Below, in pieces: positions 9,564 through 16,896 of a stretch of 24,042 nucleotides of DNA. This stretch comes from Candidatus Odinarchaeia archaeon. Lineage in GTDB: Archaea > Asgardarchaeota > Odinarchaeia > Odinarchaeales > Odinarchaeaceae. The stretch is from assembly GCA_029856525.1 (NCBI GenBank), contig JAHQXC010000012.1, positions 1-24,042 on the forward strand, given 5' to 3'. A program made the position numbers and the translations under genes. The stretch's first letter is position 1. The number at the start of each line of letters is the position of its first letter. The notes under the pieces were generated by a model. It saw nothing but the letters and a program-made list of their open reading frames with translations, searched no databases and was not told where the DNA came from.

Positions 9564-9851
9564 CTAAGATGCAGCTGAACCCGTATATATTTTAATACGC
9601 CTACTCTCAGAGACAGGTTTAATCAAACCCTTCTCAGCTAGTTGAAGCAAAACCTTCTTAGCCTCACCTAACCGAAGATTATATTTAACACCAAGCATAT
9701 TAGGCGTAATCACCTTCATCTTCGGAACCTCTCTAACAAGAGATTTAAGCAGCTCAGGTTTCAGCTCAACATCTTTAATATTCTTCTCAATTTTTTCAGG
9801 AGTAGCCCCCTTCTTTTTAACTTTAGCCTTACCCTTAGCCTGCTGGGACAT
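9564..9851 (-). CDS. rps25e: 30S ribosomal protein S25e
   Basis: Lys-rich N-terminus followed by the winged-helix core REVPKMKVITPNMLGVKYNLRLGEAKKVLLQLAEKGLIKPV..RRIKIY. GAGGTG SD 5 nt upstream. Confidence 0.92.
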   Translation of the reverse strand: MSQQAKGKAKVKKKGATPEKIEKNIKDVELKPELLKSLVREVPKMKVITPNMLGVKYNLRLGEAKKVLLQLAEKGLIKPVSESRRIKIYTGSAAS

Positions 9852-10022
9852 GAAAACACCTCGATAGGATACTATACAATCAGGTATATAATGTTTAGCA
9901 GTGAACGCTAATAGAGTTCAACCAAAAATAAAGTTTAAAGAAACCATATTTTAATTTTTCCATTCAAATAGAGTAGAGTTTAAGTTGAGCGGAGTATTTA
10001 TTAATAGAAAAGTTATATTATA

Positions 10023-10043
10023 TTTCGTAGTAAAATTACATAA
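10023..10043 (+). promoter_or_regulatory. Near-palindromic operator-like site, copy 1 (TTTCGTAGTAAAATTACATAA)
   Basis: 19/21 identical to the reverse complement of 15722-15742. It lies just downstream of TATA-like TTATATTA (10013-10020) in the upstream region of the Pro-rich gene. Confidence 0.55.
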
Positions 10044-10132
10044 ATAATAGTAAGAAAAAATTAATATAACAGCGCTAAATAAGATTATATGAGTCTAGTA
10101 AAAATTTCAAGTTTAAAATTGAGGGGAATATC

Positions 10133-10744
10133 TTGGAAGATCAAACCCAGAAAGCAGTGCGAGTGTTAGCCAGGATAAAAGACTACTTTCTAGAAGCTAT
10201 AGACAAGTTTTCTAAAACAGTTAACGAGGCCACTAAAACACTCACAGACAGTTTAAAACGAATTGAAAAAGATTTAAAATCAATCGAGCTTGGCAGTCTA
10301 CCAGCCAGTGAAAAAACAACATCCACATCTGTGATAACCACTGTTCTAGCTAAAAGAGGAGAGATAATGACACCCGAAGACCTGTGGGCTTTACTATCAG
10401 GTAAACCTGTAACACAACCGGTTACAGTTCAACAAACACCACAACCCCAGCTTACACCGCCAACACCACCCACATTACAAATCCCAGAAGCTGAAGCCAC
10501 TCCAAAGATCACACCGCCGAAGGCGCCGGAGTTTAAGCCGGCTGCTCAAATCCCTCCTATAATTGAACCGCCCGCCGCTATACCGAAGGCAACTCCAACC
10601 GTAACAACACCAGCCGGCATACCTCAAATACCTTCAGAACCAGTAGAGGAGGCTACCGTAGACCAAACCTCAGTAAGCTCACTTAAAAATGAAATGCTAA
10701 AAGAGTTGAAACGGCTTAAAAAGCTTATGACAGGCATGACATAA
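10133..10744 (+). CDS. Hypothetical protein: N-terminal coiled coil, Pro/Thr-rich linker, C-terminal amphipathic helix
   Basis: 203-aa ORF with GAGGGG SD 6 nt before TTG. Heptad-like residues 5-52, about 30% Pro in residues 92-170, ending in SSLKNEMLKELKRLKKLMTGMT. Confidence 0.85.
   Translation: MEDQTQKAVRVLARIKDYFLEAIDKFSKTVNEATKTLTDSLKRIEKDLKSIELGSLPASEKTTSTSVITTVLAKRGEIMTPEDLWALLSGKPVTQPVTVQQTPQPQLTPPTPPTLQIPEAEATPKITPPKAPEFKPAAQIPPIIEPPAAIPKATPTVTTPAGIPQIPSEPVEEATVDQTSVSSLKNEMLKELKRLKKLMTGMT
10406..10642 (+). repeat. Low-complexity Pro/Thr-rich coding segment (degenerate TPP/IPP/xP repeats)
   Basis: 24 Pro in 79 residues, e.g. LTPPTPPT, ITPPKAP, QIPPIIEPPAAIP, GIPQIPSEP. Confidence 0.7.
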
Positions 10745-10779
10745 TAGAATAAAACGTATTTTAAACTTAACAGTGCTTC

Positions 10780-10800
10780 TCTAAAAGCTTTTAGAAAAAA
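10780..10800. terminator. Perfect 16-bp palindrome plus A6 tract between convergent genes; possible terminator or protein-binding site
   Basis: TCTAAAAGCTTTTAGA (10780-10795) is self-complementary. The A run at 10795-10800 is a T6 tract on the minus strand, downstream of the 96-aa gene. Confidence 0.35.
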
Positions 10801-10871
10801 TAGTTTAACAGACTCCCATGCTTAAAGCCTGTTTAAGATATAGTAGCGTAAATAGAAAGAGAATATAAAAT

Positions 10872-11162
10872 TCAACTAGCACACTCCAGTTTATAGCTTT
10901 CAGAACCGTGAGGTATATAGAATACATCCCCTCGCTTAATTATTATACTTCTAAAATACTGGGCTAAAGCTAGAAAAGCTTTAATAGGCGCATCATCTTC
11001 AGGTTCAACCTTCATCTCCACAATCCACGCAACCGCTCCGGGATTAATCTTTAAATCAGAAACAGTTTTCTCATCTAGTATAGGAATCTTCAACTCTGCG
11101 GCTAGATCAAAGACTTTCTTAACGAATAGTTTAACTTTTTCAACATCTTTAAATAAGGGCAT
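10872..11162 (-). CDS. Hypothetical protein (96 aa)
   Basis: ATG with GGTGG SD, AT-rich promoter-like upstream region, no overlap with other genes. No family recognised. Confidence 0.75.
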   Translation of the reverse strand: MPLFKDVEKVKLFVKKVFDLAAELKIPILDEKTVSDLKINPGAVAWIVEMKVEPEDDAPIKAFLALAQYFRSIIIKRGDVFYIPHGSESYKLECAS

Positions 11163-11277
11163 ACAACCACCAGGCGACTCTTCAAATTATAACATAGTTT
11201 TCTATTATAAAACCGGGTTTAAATAGACCTTTCTAATTATATAATTTAAAAAGTATTTAAATATTATTAAGAAATTT

Positions 11278-11937
11278 TTACTGAAGCTTCCGACGCTCCC
11301 CTGTAAACATGTATATCAGTCTACTGCCTATATTACAAGCGTGGTCAGCCATTCTCTCAAGGTATCTGGCAACTAACATAAGATCAGTGGCATCGGATAT
11401 AACACGCGGATTCTCTATCATCATAGAAACAAGTTCACGGTAAACCTGATACCATAAAGCATCCACTTCATTATCTTTCTCAGAAAGTTTTTCAACGCAT
11501 TCCAGTACTTTACTCTGCTCAAGCGCGTCCAGAGTACATCTAATCATCTCCTGAGCCAGCTTACTCATCCTCGGAATATCTATTAAAGGCTTTATTAAAG
11601 GCTTATCAAGCGTTTGCTTAGTTATTCTAGCAATATTAGAGGCTAAATCACTGATCCTATCGAAGTCGCCTATAATCCTTAAATACGAGATAATCGCTCT
11701 CAGATCGTCAGCTACAGGCTGCTGGCGGACTATAAGTTGAATACAGGTTTCTTCGATTCGAAGCTCATAGTCGTCGATTCTAGCAGCCTCAGTTAAAACT
11801 TTATCAGCTAAAGAAGCGTCCTTATTAGCTAAGCTTAACACGGCGATATCTATAAGACTAGCCGCCAGCTCACCCATTTTAATAACGCTTTTAGTTAAAT
11901 TAGCCAGCTCCTGGTAGTATCGCTTTCTAACCTGCAT
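11278..11937 (-). CDS. phoU: Phosphate transport system regulator PhoU
   Basis: Two PhoU repeats: IDDYE...QQPVADDLR...DFDRISDLASNIA and DNEVDAL...ARYLERMADHACNI. Downstream of pstB. Confidence 0.96.
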   Translation of the reverse strand: MQVRKRYYQELANLTKSVIKMGELAASLIDIAVLSLANKDASLADKVLTEAARIDDYELRIEETCIQLIVRQQPVADDLRAIISYLRIIGDFDRISDLASNIARITKQTLDKPLIKPLIDIPRMSKLAQEMIRCTLDALEQSKVLECVEKLSEKDNEVDALWYQVYRELVSMMIENPRVISDATDLMLVARYLERMADHACNIGSRLIYMFTGERRKLQ

Positions 11938-11973
11938 TTAAATCCACCTTAAAAGAGAATTGAAAACATATTT

Positions 11974-12783
11974 TTAACCAAACCTCCCGGTTATATAAGC
12001 TTTAGTCTTCTCCTCTCTAGGCCGCTCGAATATTATACTAGTAGGACCGAATTCTACAAGCTCCCCCATATATAGAAACGCGGTGTAATCTGATACGCGA
12101 GCCGCCTGCTGCATGTTATGAGTAACTATTACTATGGTGAGAGATTCTTTAAGATCTAACATAAGATCCTCTATTTTAGCCGTGGATACAGGGTCTAAAG
12201 CAGAACACGGCTCGTCCATTAAAAGCACTTCAGGGTTGACTGCTAAAGCTCGAGCGATGCAAAGCCGCTGCTGTTGGCCTCCTGAAAGACTTAAAGCGTT
12301 ATCCTTCAAACGGTCTTTAACCTCATCCCATAATGCTGCACGCTCTAAGCTTTCCTGAACTATTCTATAAAGTTTAGATTTACTTCTCACACCGTGAATT
12401 AGAGGACCGTAAGCCACGTTCTCGAAAATAGATTTAGGGAAGGGATTAGGTTTCTGAAAAACCATGCCAATCCGTCTTCGAAGCTCGACAACATCCACAT
12501 CGTCGCCTATAATATTATATCCGTCAAATAGAATTTCACCTTCAACACGAGCGTTATCTAGATCACACATTCTGTTAAAAGTTCGAATCAGCGTGGTTTT
12601 ACCGCAGCCTGAAGGTCCGATAATCGCGGTTATCCTGTTCCTCTTAATCTCTAAGTTAATAGACTTCAAAACATGAGTGGAACCGAACCATAGGTTAAGA
12701 TTTCTAACCGAGATAACGCTTGGCAGTGCTTTAAAATCCTCCTGTATGAGAAACTCTTTAAGCCAGTCGTCGTCTACAAGCAT
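11974..12783 (-). CDS. pstB: Phosphate ABC transporter ATP-binding protein
   Basis: Walker [72 protein letters not shown]. Confidence 0.97.
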
Positions 12784-12793
12784 CTTCCACCAC

Positions 12794-13657
12794 CTATGAA
12801 GACCTCACCGCTTCAAGTCTTCTTCTAGCCTTGTTTCTAATATAAATCGCTAAAATATTAAGAGAGGTGATTAAAGCTAATAGAATAAGACAGGCGGCGA
12901 AAGCGATCGGCAGCGTGTATTCTAAACCGGTTGATTGAAGAGTTAAATTATATATTGTAAACGGTAAAGCCATGGAAGGAGCTAAAGGAGAGAAAACGAA
13001 GCCGGATAATCCCACAGCGTAAACGAATAGAATAGGCGCGGTCTCACCTCCAGCTCTGCTTAAACCTAGTATGCCACCTGTCATAATCCCGGAGATCGCG
13101 TTAGGTAACACGTGATCTCTTATAGTCTGCCACTTAGTAGCTCCGACAGCTAAAGCAGCTTCCCGATAGCTCTTAGGAACAGATAAAAGCGCCTCCTGGG
13201 AAGCTGATATAATAACCGGTAGAGTCAGCAGAGAGAGGGTTAAAGCGGCTACAACAGCTGATTTAGGGAAGCGTAAAATAATTAGAAAGAATACGAATCC
13301 GAAAACACCGTATATAATAGAAGGGAGACTAGCCAACGTGTTAATCGCCATTCTAATAATCTTTGTGAAAAGATTATCTTTAGCGTATTCTACAAGGTAG
13401 ATTGCAGCTAACACACCTATCGGAAGACTGAAGATTATAGTGAAAACCATAACGTAAATTGAGCCTAAAATAGCAGGGCCTATACCGTAAGAGTCATAGC
13501 TACCTGGGGTTGGAGCGCCTAGTAGACTCGGCTTCAACGCAGGGATAGCGTAGAAGATAATAGTGCCTACAATCCAGCCTAGAAAAATTAAAGGTATAGC
13601 AGCAACCACGCGCATAACCCAGAAATACAGTTTCTGCTTAGAATACTTTGAAATCAA
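12794..13657 (-). CDS. pstA: Phosphate ABC transporter permease PstA
   Basis: Multiple TM segments, [22 protein letters not shown] motif [23 protein letters not shown]. Confidence 0.95.
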
Positions 13658-14610
13658 CGCCTAATCCTCCAACCGATTTTCTTAGAAACCACGGAGGTAG
13701 CCACCCAGTTAACTAGCAGCGTGATGATTAAAAGAACCAGGGCGACTGCGAAAATTGAATGATACCATGTCGACCCGATAGCTACTTCACCGAAATCTCT
13801 CGCTATTAAAGCAGTCATAGCGAGAATAGACTGCAAAGGGTTAAACGCTAATAGAGGGCTGTTACCTGTGGCCATTAAAACCGCCATAGTCTCGCCGATA
13901 GCTCGGCCGAAACCTAATAAAATCGCGGTTAAAACACCAGGCTTAGCCGCCGGTAGAGTAATATTTCTAAGAGTCTCCCATTCAGATGAGCCTAAAGCTA
14001 AAGCAGCCTCCTTATACTCTTTTGGAACAGCTGTCAGAGAATCCTCAGAGATACTTATAATAGTAGGTAAAGCCATCACCGCTAATATTATCGCACCGTT
14101 TAAAGCGTTAAGCCTCGTCACCACAGCTTCACCGAATAACGTTGATAAAACAGAAGCCAGTACGACGAGCGCGAAGAAACCGTAGACAACGGAGGGGATA
14201 CCGGCTAGGATTTCAATTAAAGGCTTCAATATACTACGCTCCAGTTTACGCGCAACCTGAGAAATATACATCGCGGTTACAACACCTACAGGGACAGCTA
14301 TAGCTAAAGCCATCACTGTTATAAAGAAGCTACCCCACAGGGACGGGAGCAAGCCATATTGAGGGTTAGTTGGAGAGTCAGGACGCCAAACAATGTTTAA
14401 AAAGAATTCTAAAGGGTTAACTTGGAGAAAGAAGGGAACCGCCTCGTAAATAATATATGCGAATATTAAAACTACGAATATAACTGCGAAGAGACCGGCT
14501 GCTAAGAGAGCTTTCTCGATTAAAAACTCTACCCAGCTCCTCCTCGAACGAGAGGGATTCAACAACCCTGAAACCCGTCTATTATTACCGGTCTGGGATA
14601 CGTTCCCCAT
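13654..14610 (-). CDS. pstC: Phosphate ABC transporter permease PstC
   Basis: LAGIPSVVYGFF, KEAALALGSSEWET, GRAIGETMAVLMATGN. Confidence 0.95.
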   Translation of the reverse strand: MGNVSQTGNNRRVSGLLNPSRSRRSWVEFLIEKALLAAGLFAVIFVVLIFAYIIYEAVPFFLQVNPLEFFLNIVWRPDSPTNPQYGLLPSLWGSFFITVMALAIAVPVGVVTAMYISQVARKLERSILKPLIEILAGIPSVVYGFFALVVLASVLSTLFGEAVVTRLNALNGAIILAVMALPTIISISEDSLTAVPKEYKEAALALGSSEWETLRNITLPAAKPGVLTAILLGFGRAIGETMAVLMATGNSPLLAFNPLQSILAMTALIARDFGEVAIGSTWYHSIFAVALVLLIITLLVNWVATSVVSKKIGWRIRR

Positions 14611-14766
14611 TTAAATTCACACCAATCTTATTACAAAAAACAATAAAAGGGAACAAGTATATTAATTTTTATCTTAAAAATTCAGCGAGAATAAATTTTA
14701 GACGTGGCTTCCCGTAAATTTTATATCTTTTTTAAAATCTTAGTTCACTTAGAGGCTGGTGAATTT

Positions 14767-15690
14767 ATGGAGATAGATGATTTACAAGTCGGTTTCGGCA
14801 GGCGGACGCTGATTCTAATATTTATCTGCGCTCTAGGAGGAGGGTTTATAGGAGGCTTCTTTCTAGGCGCGTATATTGGACCTGGAGGAGTGGGAGGGTT
14901 CAGCGCTCAAATAAATATTGAAGGATCTAACACGTTATTCGAATTACAGCAAACATGGGCGTATTATTATATGCAATATAATCCTGGTGTGAATATTATT
15001 GTAGGCGGCTCCGGAACCTCTGTTGGAATAAGCCAGCTTATAAACGGGATTATAGATATAGCTGACGCCTCAAGGCTTCCAAAACAATCCGAGTATGATC
15101 TCGCGGCTAGTAAAGGGGTGAGTTTACATGTAACCCCTGTCTGCATCGACGGAATAGTTATAATAGTCCACCCCTCCAATCCCATCAGCAATATAAGCTT
15201 TAGTATTCTAAGAGGAATCTACAACGGCTCTATAACTCAGTGGAGCCAGGTAGACCCTGCTCTTTCAACTCTAGGCGCGATAGTAGCTTATTCACGTGAC
15301 CCGTCTTCAGGAACATACGGTTACTTTCAAGAACATGTTATGGGTAACGACGACTATGCTAGTAGCGTTCAGCCTTTAGCAGGTAACTCCGCGATTATTT
15401 CAGCTGTAGCAGCAGATCCGAGGGGTATAGGCTACGTTGGCGCAGCTTACGCTCAAACCTCTAGTGTGAAAGTTATCTCAGTAAACGATCCTAATACAGG
15501 TATCCCTGTTGAGCCGAGTTTCGAGAATATTAAAAGCTTCACTTACCCTATTGCTAGATATCTTTACGTGATTACAAACGGGGTTCCCAGAGGCTATATA
15601 GCGGCTTATATTGATTGGTGTCTTGGGCCTGAAGGCCAGGTGATAGCTAATAATACAGGTTATCTTCCAGTGTACTCTTTGCCTGTGTAG
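14767..15690 (+). CDS. pstS: Phosphate ABC transporter substrate-binding protein, N-terminally membrane anchored
   Basis: IEGSNT, GSGTSVG, DIADASR, IVIIVHPSN, YSRDPSSGTYGYF, IGYVG, YPIARYLY. Start set at ATG 14767 (GGTG 5 nt upstream) rather than GTG 14704. Confidence 0.95.
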   Translation: MEIDDLQVGFGRRTLILIFICALGGGFIGGFFLGAYIGPGGVGGFSAQINIEGSNTLFELQQTWAYYYMQYNPGVNIIVGGSGTSVGISQLINGIIDIADASRLPKQSEYDLAASKGVSLHVTPVCIDGIVIIVHPSNPISNISFSILRGIYNGSITQWSQVDPALSTLGAIVAYSRDPSSGTYGYFQEHVMGNDDYASSVQPLAGNSAIISAVAADPRGIGYVGAAYAQTSSVKVISVNDPNTGIPVEPSFENIKSFTYPIARYLYVITNGVPRGYIAAYIDWCLGPEGQVIANNTGYLPVYSLPV

Positions 15691-15721
15691 TAAGGTTTTT
15701 ATATAAATAATTTATAATAAA

Positions 15722-15742
15722 TTATGTAGTTTTACTACAAAA
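15722..15742 (-). promoter_or_regulatory. Palindromic operator-like site, copy 2 (core TGTAGT-TTT-ACTACA)
   Basis: Perfect 6-3-6 inverted repeat at 15725-15739, just downstream of TATA-like TTTATAAT (15711-15718) and just upstream of the longin-like gene start. Confidence 0.6.
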
Positions 15743-15753
15743 TTGTGATTGAA

Positions 15754-16197
15754 ATGTTGAATGGACAGGAAAAAAATCAATGCGAACCGAAACATAGAGT
15801 TGAAGCAATCTACATACTAGATAAAACAGGAAGCATACTAGCCTCATACAATAATAGTAAAGTAAGCGTAAAACTACTAGAAGCTATAAAAAACAGTTAC
15901 GATAAGAAAATGAAAAACAGAAAATTAAACAGCTACAAGCTAAACTGCCATAAAATATGGTATATTAAAGAAGGAAACATAGTTTTCAGCATGCTCACAA
16001 CCAGCAGTCTACCGGAAAAAGTTAGCAGGCATATATTAAAATTGATTAGAAAACCATTCCTTCAAGGATTCAAAGAAAACCTGGAAGTATACTATAAACA
16101 GAGGAGAATCATCCAATCATATGAGGAGATATTAAAAGGATGCTGCTACCCGTTATTCATAGAAATACTTGTAAAAGAATTAAACGGAGAAGAATAG
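15754..16197 (+). CDS. Longin/roadblock-like small domain protein (sigma-adaptin-like pattern)
   Basis: VEAIYILDKTGSILASY (beta hairpin), a helix, then SYKLNCHKIWYIKEGNIVFSMLT (three strands) and LPEKVSRHILKLIRKPF (helix). This is the longin beta-beta-alpha-beta-beta-beta-alpha-alpha order. GTG 15745 is an alternative start. Confidence 0.65.
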   Translation: MLNGQEKNQCEPKHRVEAIYILDKTGSILASYNNSKVSVKLLEAIKNSYDKKMKNRKLNSYKLNCHKIWYIKEGNIVFSMLTTSSLPEKVSRHILKLIRKPFLQGFKENLEVYYKQRRIIQSYEEILKGCCYPLFIEILVKELNGEE

Positions 16198-16233: not shown

Positions 16234-16896
16234 TTGACCGCGATGAAAGAAAGCGAAGAGAAAAATTTGAAAACACTGATTAAACCAGTCGCGGTTATCA
16301 TCATAATAGTAGGCGCGATAGGAGTAGGATACTTCTCACTTACAACATACCTTGGAAGCAGCACCCCTATAGTAGTAGTCACATCAGAGAGCATGCACCC
16401 AGTCTACTGGGAGGGAGACATATTATTCGTTAAATATGCGACACCCGACGAGATAACAATCGGAACAGATATAGTCTTCCACGCTACCTGGATACCGGCG
16501 TCAGACCCGAACGCGAATATACCGGTAGTTCACCGCGTAATAGATAAAAGACTGATAAACGGGGAATGGTATTTCTGGACTCAGGGAGTAAACCCTGAGA
16601 CAAACCCTTACCCTGACCCGGAGCCTACACCATACTCTAATGTAATAGGTAAAGTCGTTTTCACCATACCGAGAATAGGCTTACCCCTAGTAGTATTAAG
16701 ACCGGTAGCCGGCTACCTTCAATACTTACTGATAACAATAGTAGTCATATTAATCGTTTACATATTATACGATTACTATAAGCCAGACGGGAAAAACAGG
16801 CAGGTTAAAAATGAGAGAACACTGTGGACGGAGGAAGAGCTTAAAGAAACAGAGAAGATAGCTGGAAACCGGATTAAAGATGAAAGAGAAGAATAA
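16234..16896 (+). CDS. sec11: Signal peptidase I, archaeal/ER Sec11 type (S26B)
   Basis: N-terminal TM, VVTSESMHP (catalytic Ser), GDILFV, VVHRV (catalytic His), GKVVFTIPRIG, C-terminal TM. Confidence 0.93.
   Translation: MTAMKESEEKNLKTLIKPVAVIIIIVGAIGVGYFSLTTYLGSSTPIVVVTSESMHPVYWEGDILFVKYATPDEITIGTDIVFHATWIPASDPNANIPVVHRVIDKRLINGEWYFWTQGVNPETNPYPDPEPTPYSNVIGKVVFTIPRIGLPLVVLRPVAGYLQYLLITIVVILIVYILYDYYKPDGKNRQVKNERTLWTEEELKETEKIAGNRIKDEREE

Follow-up and report, generated by a model that had tools for sequence, protein, structure and literature searches.

The window analysed here, a stretch of 24,042 nucleotides from a Candidatus Odinarchaeia archaeon, contains two copies of a short palindrome, each next to a gene reminiscent of eukaryotes. 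Copy 1 lies between the divergent genes for ribosomal protein S25e and for a 203-amino acid (aa) protein. Copy 2 lies directly before a longin-like gene, which is followed by a gene for a Sec11-type signal peptidase. The initial annotation of the window proposed that the palindromes are the shared cis-element of a previously undescribed regulon, and its description of the two copies is confirmed. The 21-mers TTTCGTAGTAAAATTACATAA (10023-10043) and TTTTGTAGTAAAACTACATAA (reverse complement of 15722-15742) agree at 19 of 21 positions, and the 6-3-6 core, TGTAGT-N3-ACTACA, has no mismatch in copy 2 and two in copy 1. Both copies are intergenic when set against the window genes, and a position weight matrix (PWM) scan of the window gives no third site. 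The regulon itself is supported as well, by a motif with some 24 sites in the genome, its enrichment at promoters, and its conservation upstream of orthologues.

Judged from the window alone, the pair falls short of significance: the core matches twice where 0.94 matches are expected, and a count of 2 or more arises in 22 of 100 shuffles. The motif was therefore tested on the whole assembly (G000; 1.32 Mb, 127 contigs, 38.5% GC, 89% coding), of which the window is contig C113. Gene calls were made with an open reading frame (ORF) heuristic, and the genomes used throughout are metagenome-assembled. In G000 the core is perfect at four places and carries one mismatch at three more; all seven sites are intergenic or inside a doubtful 87-aa ORF. 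For the enrichment test we left out the window contig and calculated first-order Markov expectations analytically, separately for intergenic and coding DNA. Intergenic DNA contains 2, 3, and 15 cores at zero, one, and two mismatches, against 0.01, 0.26, and 5.4 expected. At up to one mismatch this amounts to 5 sites against 0.27, an enrichment of about 20-fold (P about 9e-6). The corresponding coding counts are 1, 0, and 21 against 0.05, 2.1, and 40.8, so matches are in excess in intergenic DNA and not in coding DNA. The case that the initial annotation named as refuting the regulon, a background frequency of matches with most of them inside genes, does not apply. A chance resemblance, or the remnant of a repeat or mobile element, would agree with the non-significant pair inside the 24-kb window. 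However, the genome-level P of about 1e-5, conservation over an order and three classes, and the end of similarity between any two sites at ~25 bp, with unrelated flanks, leave that explanation with next to no credit. The terminus of a repeat or mobile element is ruled out, as there is no similarity past the short palindrome.

Iterating the PWM yielded the consensus TTWTGTAGY-N3-RCTACAWAA and ~24 sites in G000, a number that is soft near the threshold because the matrix was trained on the genome it scored. Every one of these top hits is intergenic or in the doubtful 87-aa ORF, and nearly all have a start codon 5-110 nt downstream. For three good copies (C25 1855, C84 457, and C3 4543), one of them in a convergent intergenic region, the nearest ORF start is over 200 nt away; small genes or RNAs that escaped annotation may lie there. 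Nothing relevant came from scanning for Rfam families and tRNAs in the window region and at five loci whose site is distant from any ORF start.

A palindrome of this kind could also work in RNA, as a hairpin in the 5' untranslated region (UTR) or as a terminator of the preceding gene. With transcription starting at the core, a hairpin would form the 5' end of several mRNAs, and a co-directional gene precedes several sites, e.g. pstS before copy 2. We weigh this against the degeneracy of 56 distinct sites from G000 and its relatives. Perfect palindromes make up 15 of the 56; the other 41 are imperfect, with one-sided deviations. At position 6 the left/right pairs are 23 T/A, 11 T/G, 12 C/A, and 10 C/G, with no association between the sides (Fisher P 0.40), and no position among the 56 sites shows compensatory change between half-sites. 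Such independent degeneracy fits a dimeric protein reading two half-sites rather than an RNA stem. The two window copies fold into weak hairpins (-5.2 and -1.1 kcal/mol; z -1.1 and -0.2 relative to shuffles), and an Rfam search with the motif region returned no family. Some sites are located between divergent genes or ahead of TATA blocks, and the sites follow no T-run rule. A role in RNA is thus very improbable, and the idea of copy 2 as a terminator of pstS was rejected along with it.

Conservation differs between the two window genes. The copy 2 site is kept upstream of the longin-like orthologues in two genomes of the same genus (G002, G003) and in two (G005, G006) of a second family of the same order, f2; in the third f2 genome, G004, it is found on the abutting contig end. 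The operator is kept despite an identity of 24-29% between the longin-like proteins of the two families. Alignment gives the footprint at copy 2 as an AAGG-TTTTTATA box, 19-22 diverged bases, the palindrome, a Shine-Dalgarno sequence, and ATG. All six genomes of the order have the box, as TTTTTATA or CTTTTATA, at 19-22 nt before the core, with diverged sequence in between. In G002 and G003 the 203-aa orthologue is preceded by the copy 1 site at the matching place. Conservation upstream of orthologues therefore extends through the order at the longin-like gene, but stays within the genus at the 203-aa gene.

These footprints change the promoter geometry that was first assigned. The initial annotation placed TATA-like boxes 5-6 nt before both cores, so that both would cover the transcription start. 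The strings it named, TTATATTA (10013-10020) and TTTATAAT (15711-15718), are where it located them, but they are not the conserved boxes. Coverage of the predicted start holds for copy 2, which lies behind TTTTTATA. It does not hold for copy 1, which is upstream of a conserved block resembling a TATA box with its transcription factor B (TFB) recognition element (BRE). This block sits inside a stretch that is near-identical in G000, G002, and G003, whereas the sequence upstream of the palindrome has diverged; it is likely the core promoter of the 203-aa gene. Features of the window and of the candidate regulator described below are listed in Table 1.

Table 1. Coordinates of the operator copies, promoter elements, and genes discussed (window positions unless a contig is given)
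Feature	Position	Strand	Remarks
Ribosomal protein S25e gene	9564..9851	-	Pfam PF03297, E 2e-19; divergent from 203-aa gene, 174 nt from copy 1
Operator copy 1, 25-bp PWM window	10021..10045	.	PWM score 24.6; core CGTAGT-AAA-ATTACA at 10026-10040
Conserved BRE/TATA-like block AAGAAAAAA-TTAATATAA	10052..10069	+	begins about 12-20 nt downstream of copy 1
203-aa protein gene	10133..10744	+	TTG start; Shine-Dalgarno GAGGGG at 10121-10126
Conserved TATA box TTTTTATA	15696..15703	+	preceded by purine-rich BRE-like AAGG; promoter of longin-like gene; core starts 21 nt after
Operator copy 2, 25-bp PWM window	15720..15744	.	PWM score 29.7; perfect core TGTAGT-TTT-ACTACA at 15725-15739
Longin-fold protein gene	15754..16197	+	ATG 15754, placed by orthologue alignment; Shine-Dalgarno-like GTGAT at 15745-15749
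Archaeal signal peptidase I (Sec11 type) gene	16234..16896	+	TIGR02228, 89.6 bits against a cut-off of 51.85
275-aa TrmB-family protein gene	G000 C37 4512-5339		directly followed by a Rab/Ras-like small GTPase gene

The same two layouts recur elsewhere. Of the 17 promoters examined, 13 have a TATA-like box with its end 16-22 nt upstream of the core, which would then span about -3 to +15 of the predicted start. This start-site layout is found at the longin-like gene, a GT4/DUF3492 glycosyltransferase gene, the longin-Arf GTPase gene, the Ras GTPase gene, and a 103-aa gene of f2. At the promoter of the candidate TrmB-like factor itself, at copy 1, at the gelsolin gene, and probably at the profilin gene, the palindrome is instead 0-20 nt upstream of a conserved BRE/TATA-like block; for the factor's own promoter the distance is 10-15 nt in three lineages. 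A factor bound at the start site should block recruitment of RNA polymerase and repress, while one bound upstream of BRE/TATA could activate transcription or occlude TFB. Copy 2 thus occupies what we infer to be a repressor-type position. The placement of copy 1 could be activator-type or BRE-occluding, and its outcome is uncertain. Because the two copies differ in geometry, co-repression of the two window genes is not established, and regulation in opposite directions is possible.

The near-constant distance from TATA-like box to core, 16-22 nt in many promoters and at the predicted start, raises the possibility that the basal machinery itself recognises the palindrome, e.g. as an initiator-region signal of an alternative TFB or TATA-binding protein (TBP) paralogue; it would then mark a class of promoters and not a site of repression or activation. 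Promoter sets specific to TFB paralogues are reportedly present in other archaea, going by the title of a 2026 preprint. However, two-fold symmetry with independently degenerate half-sites is typical of dimeric factors, and sites that lie upstream of BRE/TATA-like blocks, or in tandem at the regulator promoter, are a misfit for a fixed initiator. We consider such an element improbable.

To see what an operator might control, we identified the genes flanking the sites in G000 by Pfam, NCBIfam, and fold searches. They include the sole actin gene and the sole profilin gene of this genome. Another target is an 83-aa one-domain gelsolin, an unannotated-looking ORF (C9 10308-10559; L002:5309-5560) with an operator 59 nt upstream. 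Its model has a predicted local distance difference test (pLDDT) score of 92 and best matches in the PDB the actin-bound Thorarchaeota ProGel, 7c2f, with a template modelling (TM) score of 0.77. Further targets are a Ras-like GTPase, a longin-Arf-like GTPase fusion, two longin proteins (one of them the window's), a roadblock protein, one FtsZ, two GT4/DUF3492 glycosyltransferases, a PelG-like exporter, and two winged-helix regulator genes. Adenylate kinase, S-adenosylmethionine synthetase, Get3, and S25e also flank sites, and some of these are merely divergent neighbours of another target. Sites are carried by 8 of 32 small-GTPase, longin/roadblock, actin, profilin, and FtsZ-family genes against 21 of 1383 others (odds ratio 21.6, P 8e-8), with classes that were set after seeing the targets. 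The perfect sites of f2 and of Freyarchaeia likewise lie beside GTPase, longin-GTPase, and roadblock genes. Within the genus the sites of actin, profilin, and gelsolin are kept, the 25-bp site having an identity of 0.80-1.00 and the flanks 0.29-0.60 without gaps; the upstream flank of actin is 89% identical. The 103-aa gene of f2 (L031:2177-2488 in G004, with equivalents in G005 and G006) is divergent from the regulator gene; the strongest operator copy precedes its start by 21-22 nt. The gene has no family match and no homologue in G000.

The two window genes belong with this set. The 203-aa protein is of an Asgard-only family (atlas score 0.90). Its helical N-domain is joined through ~80 aa of Pro-rich linker to an amphipathic helix that is conserved at the C-terminus (...SLKxEMLKELKxLKKLM). 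This layout may resemble that of poly-Pro plus WH2-type actin regulators. Pfam and NCBIfam searches assigned no family to it or to several other targets; among these unassigned targets a match to CCDC53, a subunit of WASH, was non-significant (E 0.09) and was not relied on. In this genus (G000, G002, and G003) the 203-aa gene has its operator in common with actin, profilin, and gelsolin. S25e, the divergent gene on the other side of copy 1, is possible as a target but less likely. The assignment of a longin fold to the second gene is sound: the Pfam Longin match (E 5e-4) is below the family cut-off, and the AlphaFold model (pLDDT 75) matches the longin domains of VAMP7 and Sec22b with a TM score of about 0.6. 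The gene after it does encode a Sec11-type signal peptidase, the gene order is the same in five of five relatives, and at a distance of 36 nt the two are probably co-transcribed.

Several observations concern the neighbourhood of these genes. A phosphate-uptake cluster (window 11278-15690; pstS on the plus strand, pstC, pstA, pstB, and phoU on the minus strand) separates the 203-aa and longin-like genes in this genus. In f2 no such cluster intervenes: the two genes share a strand, and only ~0.9 kb separates the upstream 203-aa gene from the longin-like gene. In G002 (L026:2194-3610) and G003 (L027) the 203-aa gene is immediately followed by a 461-aa carotenoid-oxygenase-like gene that carries a perfect operator with a TATA box 19-20 nt upstream; tblastn found no match to it in G000.

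A candidate binder of the palindrome came from the genes beside perfect sites in other genomes, which include orthologues of a TrmB-like gene of G000. The 275-aa protein that it encodes, on C37, has a TrmB winged-helix domain (PF01978, E 2.2e-18), and its closest solved relatives in the PDB are TrmBL2 and TrmB (TrmBL2 E 3.5e-11 over residues 19-168). Against the NCBIfam equivalogs for TrmB, TrmBL1, and TrmBL2 it scores 47.7-53 bits, with cut-offs of 530-650, and only about residues 8-182 align. Its C-terminal domain is strongly conserved but matches no family, and no sugar-binding TrmB_C domain is detectable. An invariant Tyr53, in the VPRPNVY motif of the putative recognition helix, can be equated with Tyr50 of TrmB, a residue that matters for DNA binding (PMC4158304). 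In a search of 121 genomes of the phylum, orthologues were found in 7/7 Odinarchaeia, 6/6 Jord/Freyarchaeia, 4/5 Baldrarchaeia, and 1/5 Sifarchaeia, and nowhere else. The motif precedes the factor gene at 13 of 14 loci outside Baldrarchaeia, the exception being at a contig end: four of four in family f1, three of three in f2 (two copies each), five of six in Jord/Freyarchaeia (one to three copies), and the single Sifarchaeum. The f2 orthologue is 58% identical, and the Jord/Freyarchaeia orthologue, at 45% identity, has three motif copies upstream in two genomes. Tandem copies at this promoter are 35-125 bp apart. The regulator loci of Baldrarchaeia (L064-L067) have a conserved block with a TGTAGTAACA half-site, and G012 has TGTAGT-N7-ACTACA, which suggests that the half-site was kept while the spacing changed. 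A Rab/Ras-like GTPase gene directly follows the factor gene at 15 of 17 loci, and the two are probably co-transcribed. Immediately upstream of this operon in G000 is a family-B DNA polymerase gene with an intein (C37 582-4403; L004).

Because motif copies precede the factor's own gene across lineages, we infer that the binder is this TrmB-like factor and that it is autoregulated. The palindrome would then be the operator of a dimeric winged-helix factor, most likely the 275-aa protein, acting on its own gene and on about two dozen promoters, and we hold this to be probable. Such a factor would regulate its own gene and would control actin, profilin, gelsolin, Ras/Arf-like GTPases, longin/roadblock proteins, FtsZ, envelope glycosyltransferases, and both window genes. 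Of the initial proposal that one transcription factor represses both window genes, the single factor is retained, most likely as a winged-helix dimer, but the joint repression is not.

The operator could be genuine and yet have a different binder, with the TrmB-like gene merely among its targets. Motif copies before its gene are all that ties the TrmB-like factor to the operator, 6-3-6 palindromes are bound by many winged-helix dimers, and a second candidate exists. This is an ArsR-like winged-helix protein (C114 5852-6496; L014:5852-6496) with a palindrome 54 nt upstream of its gene, kept in G002 and G003. However, the ArsR-like sites have TGTAAY or TGTATC half-sites without the near-invariant G at position 5 and are absent in f2, whereas the sites of the TrmB-like gene are canonical, frequently number two or three, and span four families from three Asgard classes. 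The ArsR-like palindrome, TGTATC-TAT-ATTACA in G000 and TGTAAT-N3-GTTACA in G002 and G003, is confined to the genus; its gene is either a weak regulon member or carries a distinct operator of its own. Strong enrichment of the motif is confined to genomes that encode the TrmB-like factor. Perfect cores number 4-7 in the three genomes of the genus and 3-4 in the three of f2, where a reversed-pattern control gives 0; most other Asgard genomes, though larger, have 0-2. Among 41 Asgard genomes, eight have at least three perfect cores and all eight encode the factor, while the 30 without it never exceed two; related genomes are not independent, and these eight represent about three independent lineages. 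The N3-spaced, TA-rich palindrome moreover resembles the Pyrococcus TrmB operator TACT-N3-AGTA. We therefore regard ArsR-like or other binders as unlikely.

Besides the ArsR-like site and the dependence among genomes, several points weigh against an autoregulated TrmB-like factor with a broad regulon. The autoregulation argument is strong but indirect, and another factor could bind this promoter and the others. In f2 the site is absent at the 203-aa orthologue and at actin, profilin, and gelsolin, so membership of the regulon is only partly conserved. The PWM, as said above, was trained and scored on one genome. TATA boxes and start positions were read from AT-rich sequence, where TATA-like words are common. 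In a profile of such words upstream of 508 genes the Shine-Dalgarno signal stands out clearly at -15 to -6, whereas TATA-like words form no sharp peak, and thus a typical 5'-UTR length cannot be derived from it. A search of public sequencing runs for this DNA returned the probable source metagenome only and no RNA run.

The TrmB-like factor and its Rab-like GTPase partner may form a switch gated by nucleotide state, in which the Rab-like GTPase, or regulon longin/roadblock proteins acting as its guanine nucleotide exchange factor or GTPase-activating protein, controls operator binding. We consider this doubtful. A complex prediction of the TrmB-like factor with the Rab-like GTPase and GTP scored 0.00, which weighs neither way. 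If true, the actin module (actin, profilin, and gelsolin) and GTPase-regulator genes would come under transcriptional feedback from a GTPase cycle, and archaeal signalling from small GTPases to gene expression would be older than eukaryotes.

Asgard archaea draw interest for their eukaryotic signature proteins, yet little is known of how these genes are controlled and which of them act jointly, and cultures are lacking for most lineages. An operator conserved at actin, profilin, gelsolin, small-GTPase, and longin/roadblock genes offers a sequence-based predictor of which of the many paralogues share one programme, and the regulator-operator pair is concrete and testable in vitro without culture. 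It also gives functional context to the operon of regulator and Rab-like GTPase and to Asgard-only proteins such as the 203-aa Pro-rich protein. Our literature search on Asgard regulons, promoters, and links between TrmB and GTPases found no described Asgard transcription-factor regulon.

Among known systems, the Thermococcales regulators TrmB and TrmBL1 (Tgr) are the natural comparison. TrmB-family operators are palindromes, such as TACT-N3-AGTA and the TGM, TATCAC-N5-GTGATA; sites upstream of BRE/TATA lead to activation, and sites at or after the TATA box or at the start site lead to repression (PMC4158304). The candidate shares with these proteins the N-terminal winged helix and a helical stretch, residues 19-168, that aligns to TrmBL2 and TrmB. 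Like the TrmB operator, the palindrome here is AT-rich and its half-sites are three bases apart (TAGY-N3-RCTA). The predicted placements, at the start site behind a TATA box or just upstream of BRE/TATA, would match the repressor/activator duality of TrmBL1/Tgr, and autoregulation is likely. Unlike in TrmB and TrmBL1, the half-site sequence is different, there is no detectable TrmB_C domain, and equivalog scores are far below the cut-offs. Their targets are in sugar transport and metabolism, whereas those found here are cytoskeletal, GTPase, longin, and envelope genes, and the candidate gene, found in Asgard lineages, has a Rab-like GTPase as its constant operon partner. TrmBL2 (PDB 5box, 5bpd, and 5bqt), the closest solved relative by sequence, is similar in length and likewise has no recognised sugar pocket. 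However, TrmBL2 is described as abundant and as binding coding and intergenic regions alike (PMC4158304), whereas the evidence here points to a sequence-specific operator confined to about two dozen promoters. One FtsZ gene among the targets recalls the cell-division regulons of aCcr1 in Sulfolobales and CdrS in Halobacteria (PMC9976878, PMC7439475). Those regulators are ribbon-helix-helix proteins, and the aCcr1-box has 9 bp, in contrast to the 21-bp 6-3-6 palindrome, winged-helix candidate, and actin- and GTPase-centred regulon described here. The aCcr1-box, A(T/G)G(A)TA(G)A(T/G)TACN, was rejected as an equivalent, as half-site and length differ. Taken together, a TrmB-family factor with a palindromic operator is a system of a kind already known. 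What is new is the sequence of the operator, its conservation over three Asgard classes with half-sites in a fourth, and a target set that joins the actin cytoskeleton, GTPases, longin/roadblock proteins, and the operon of regulator and GTPase.

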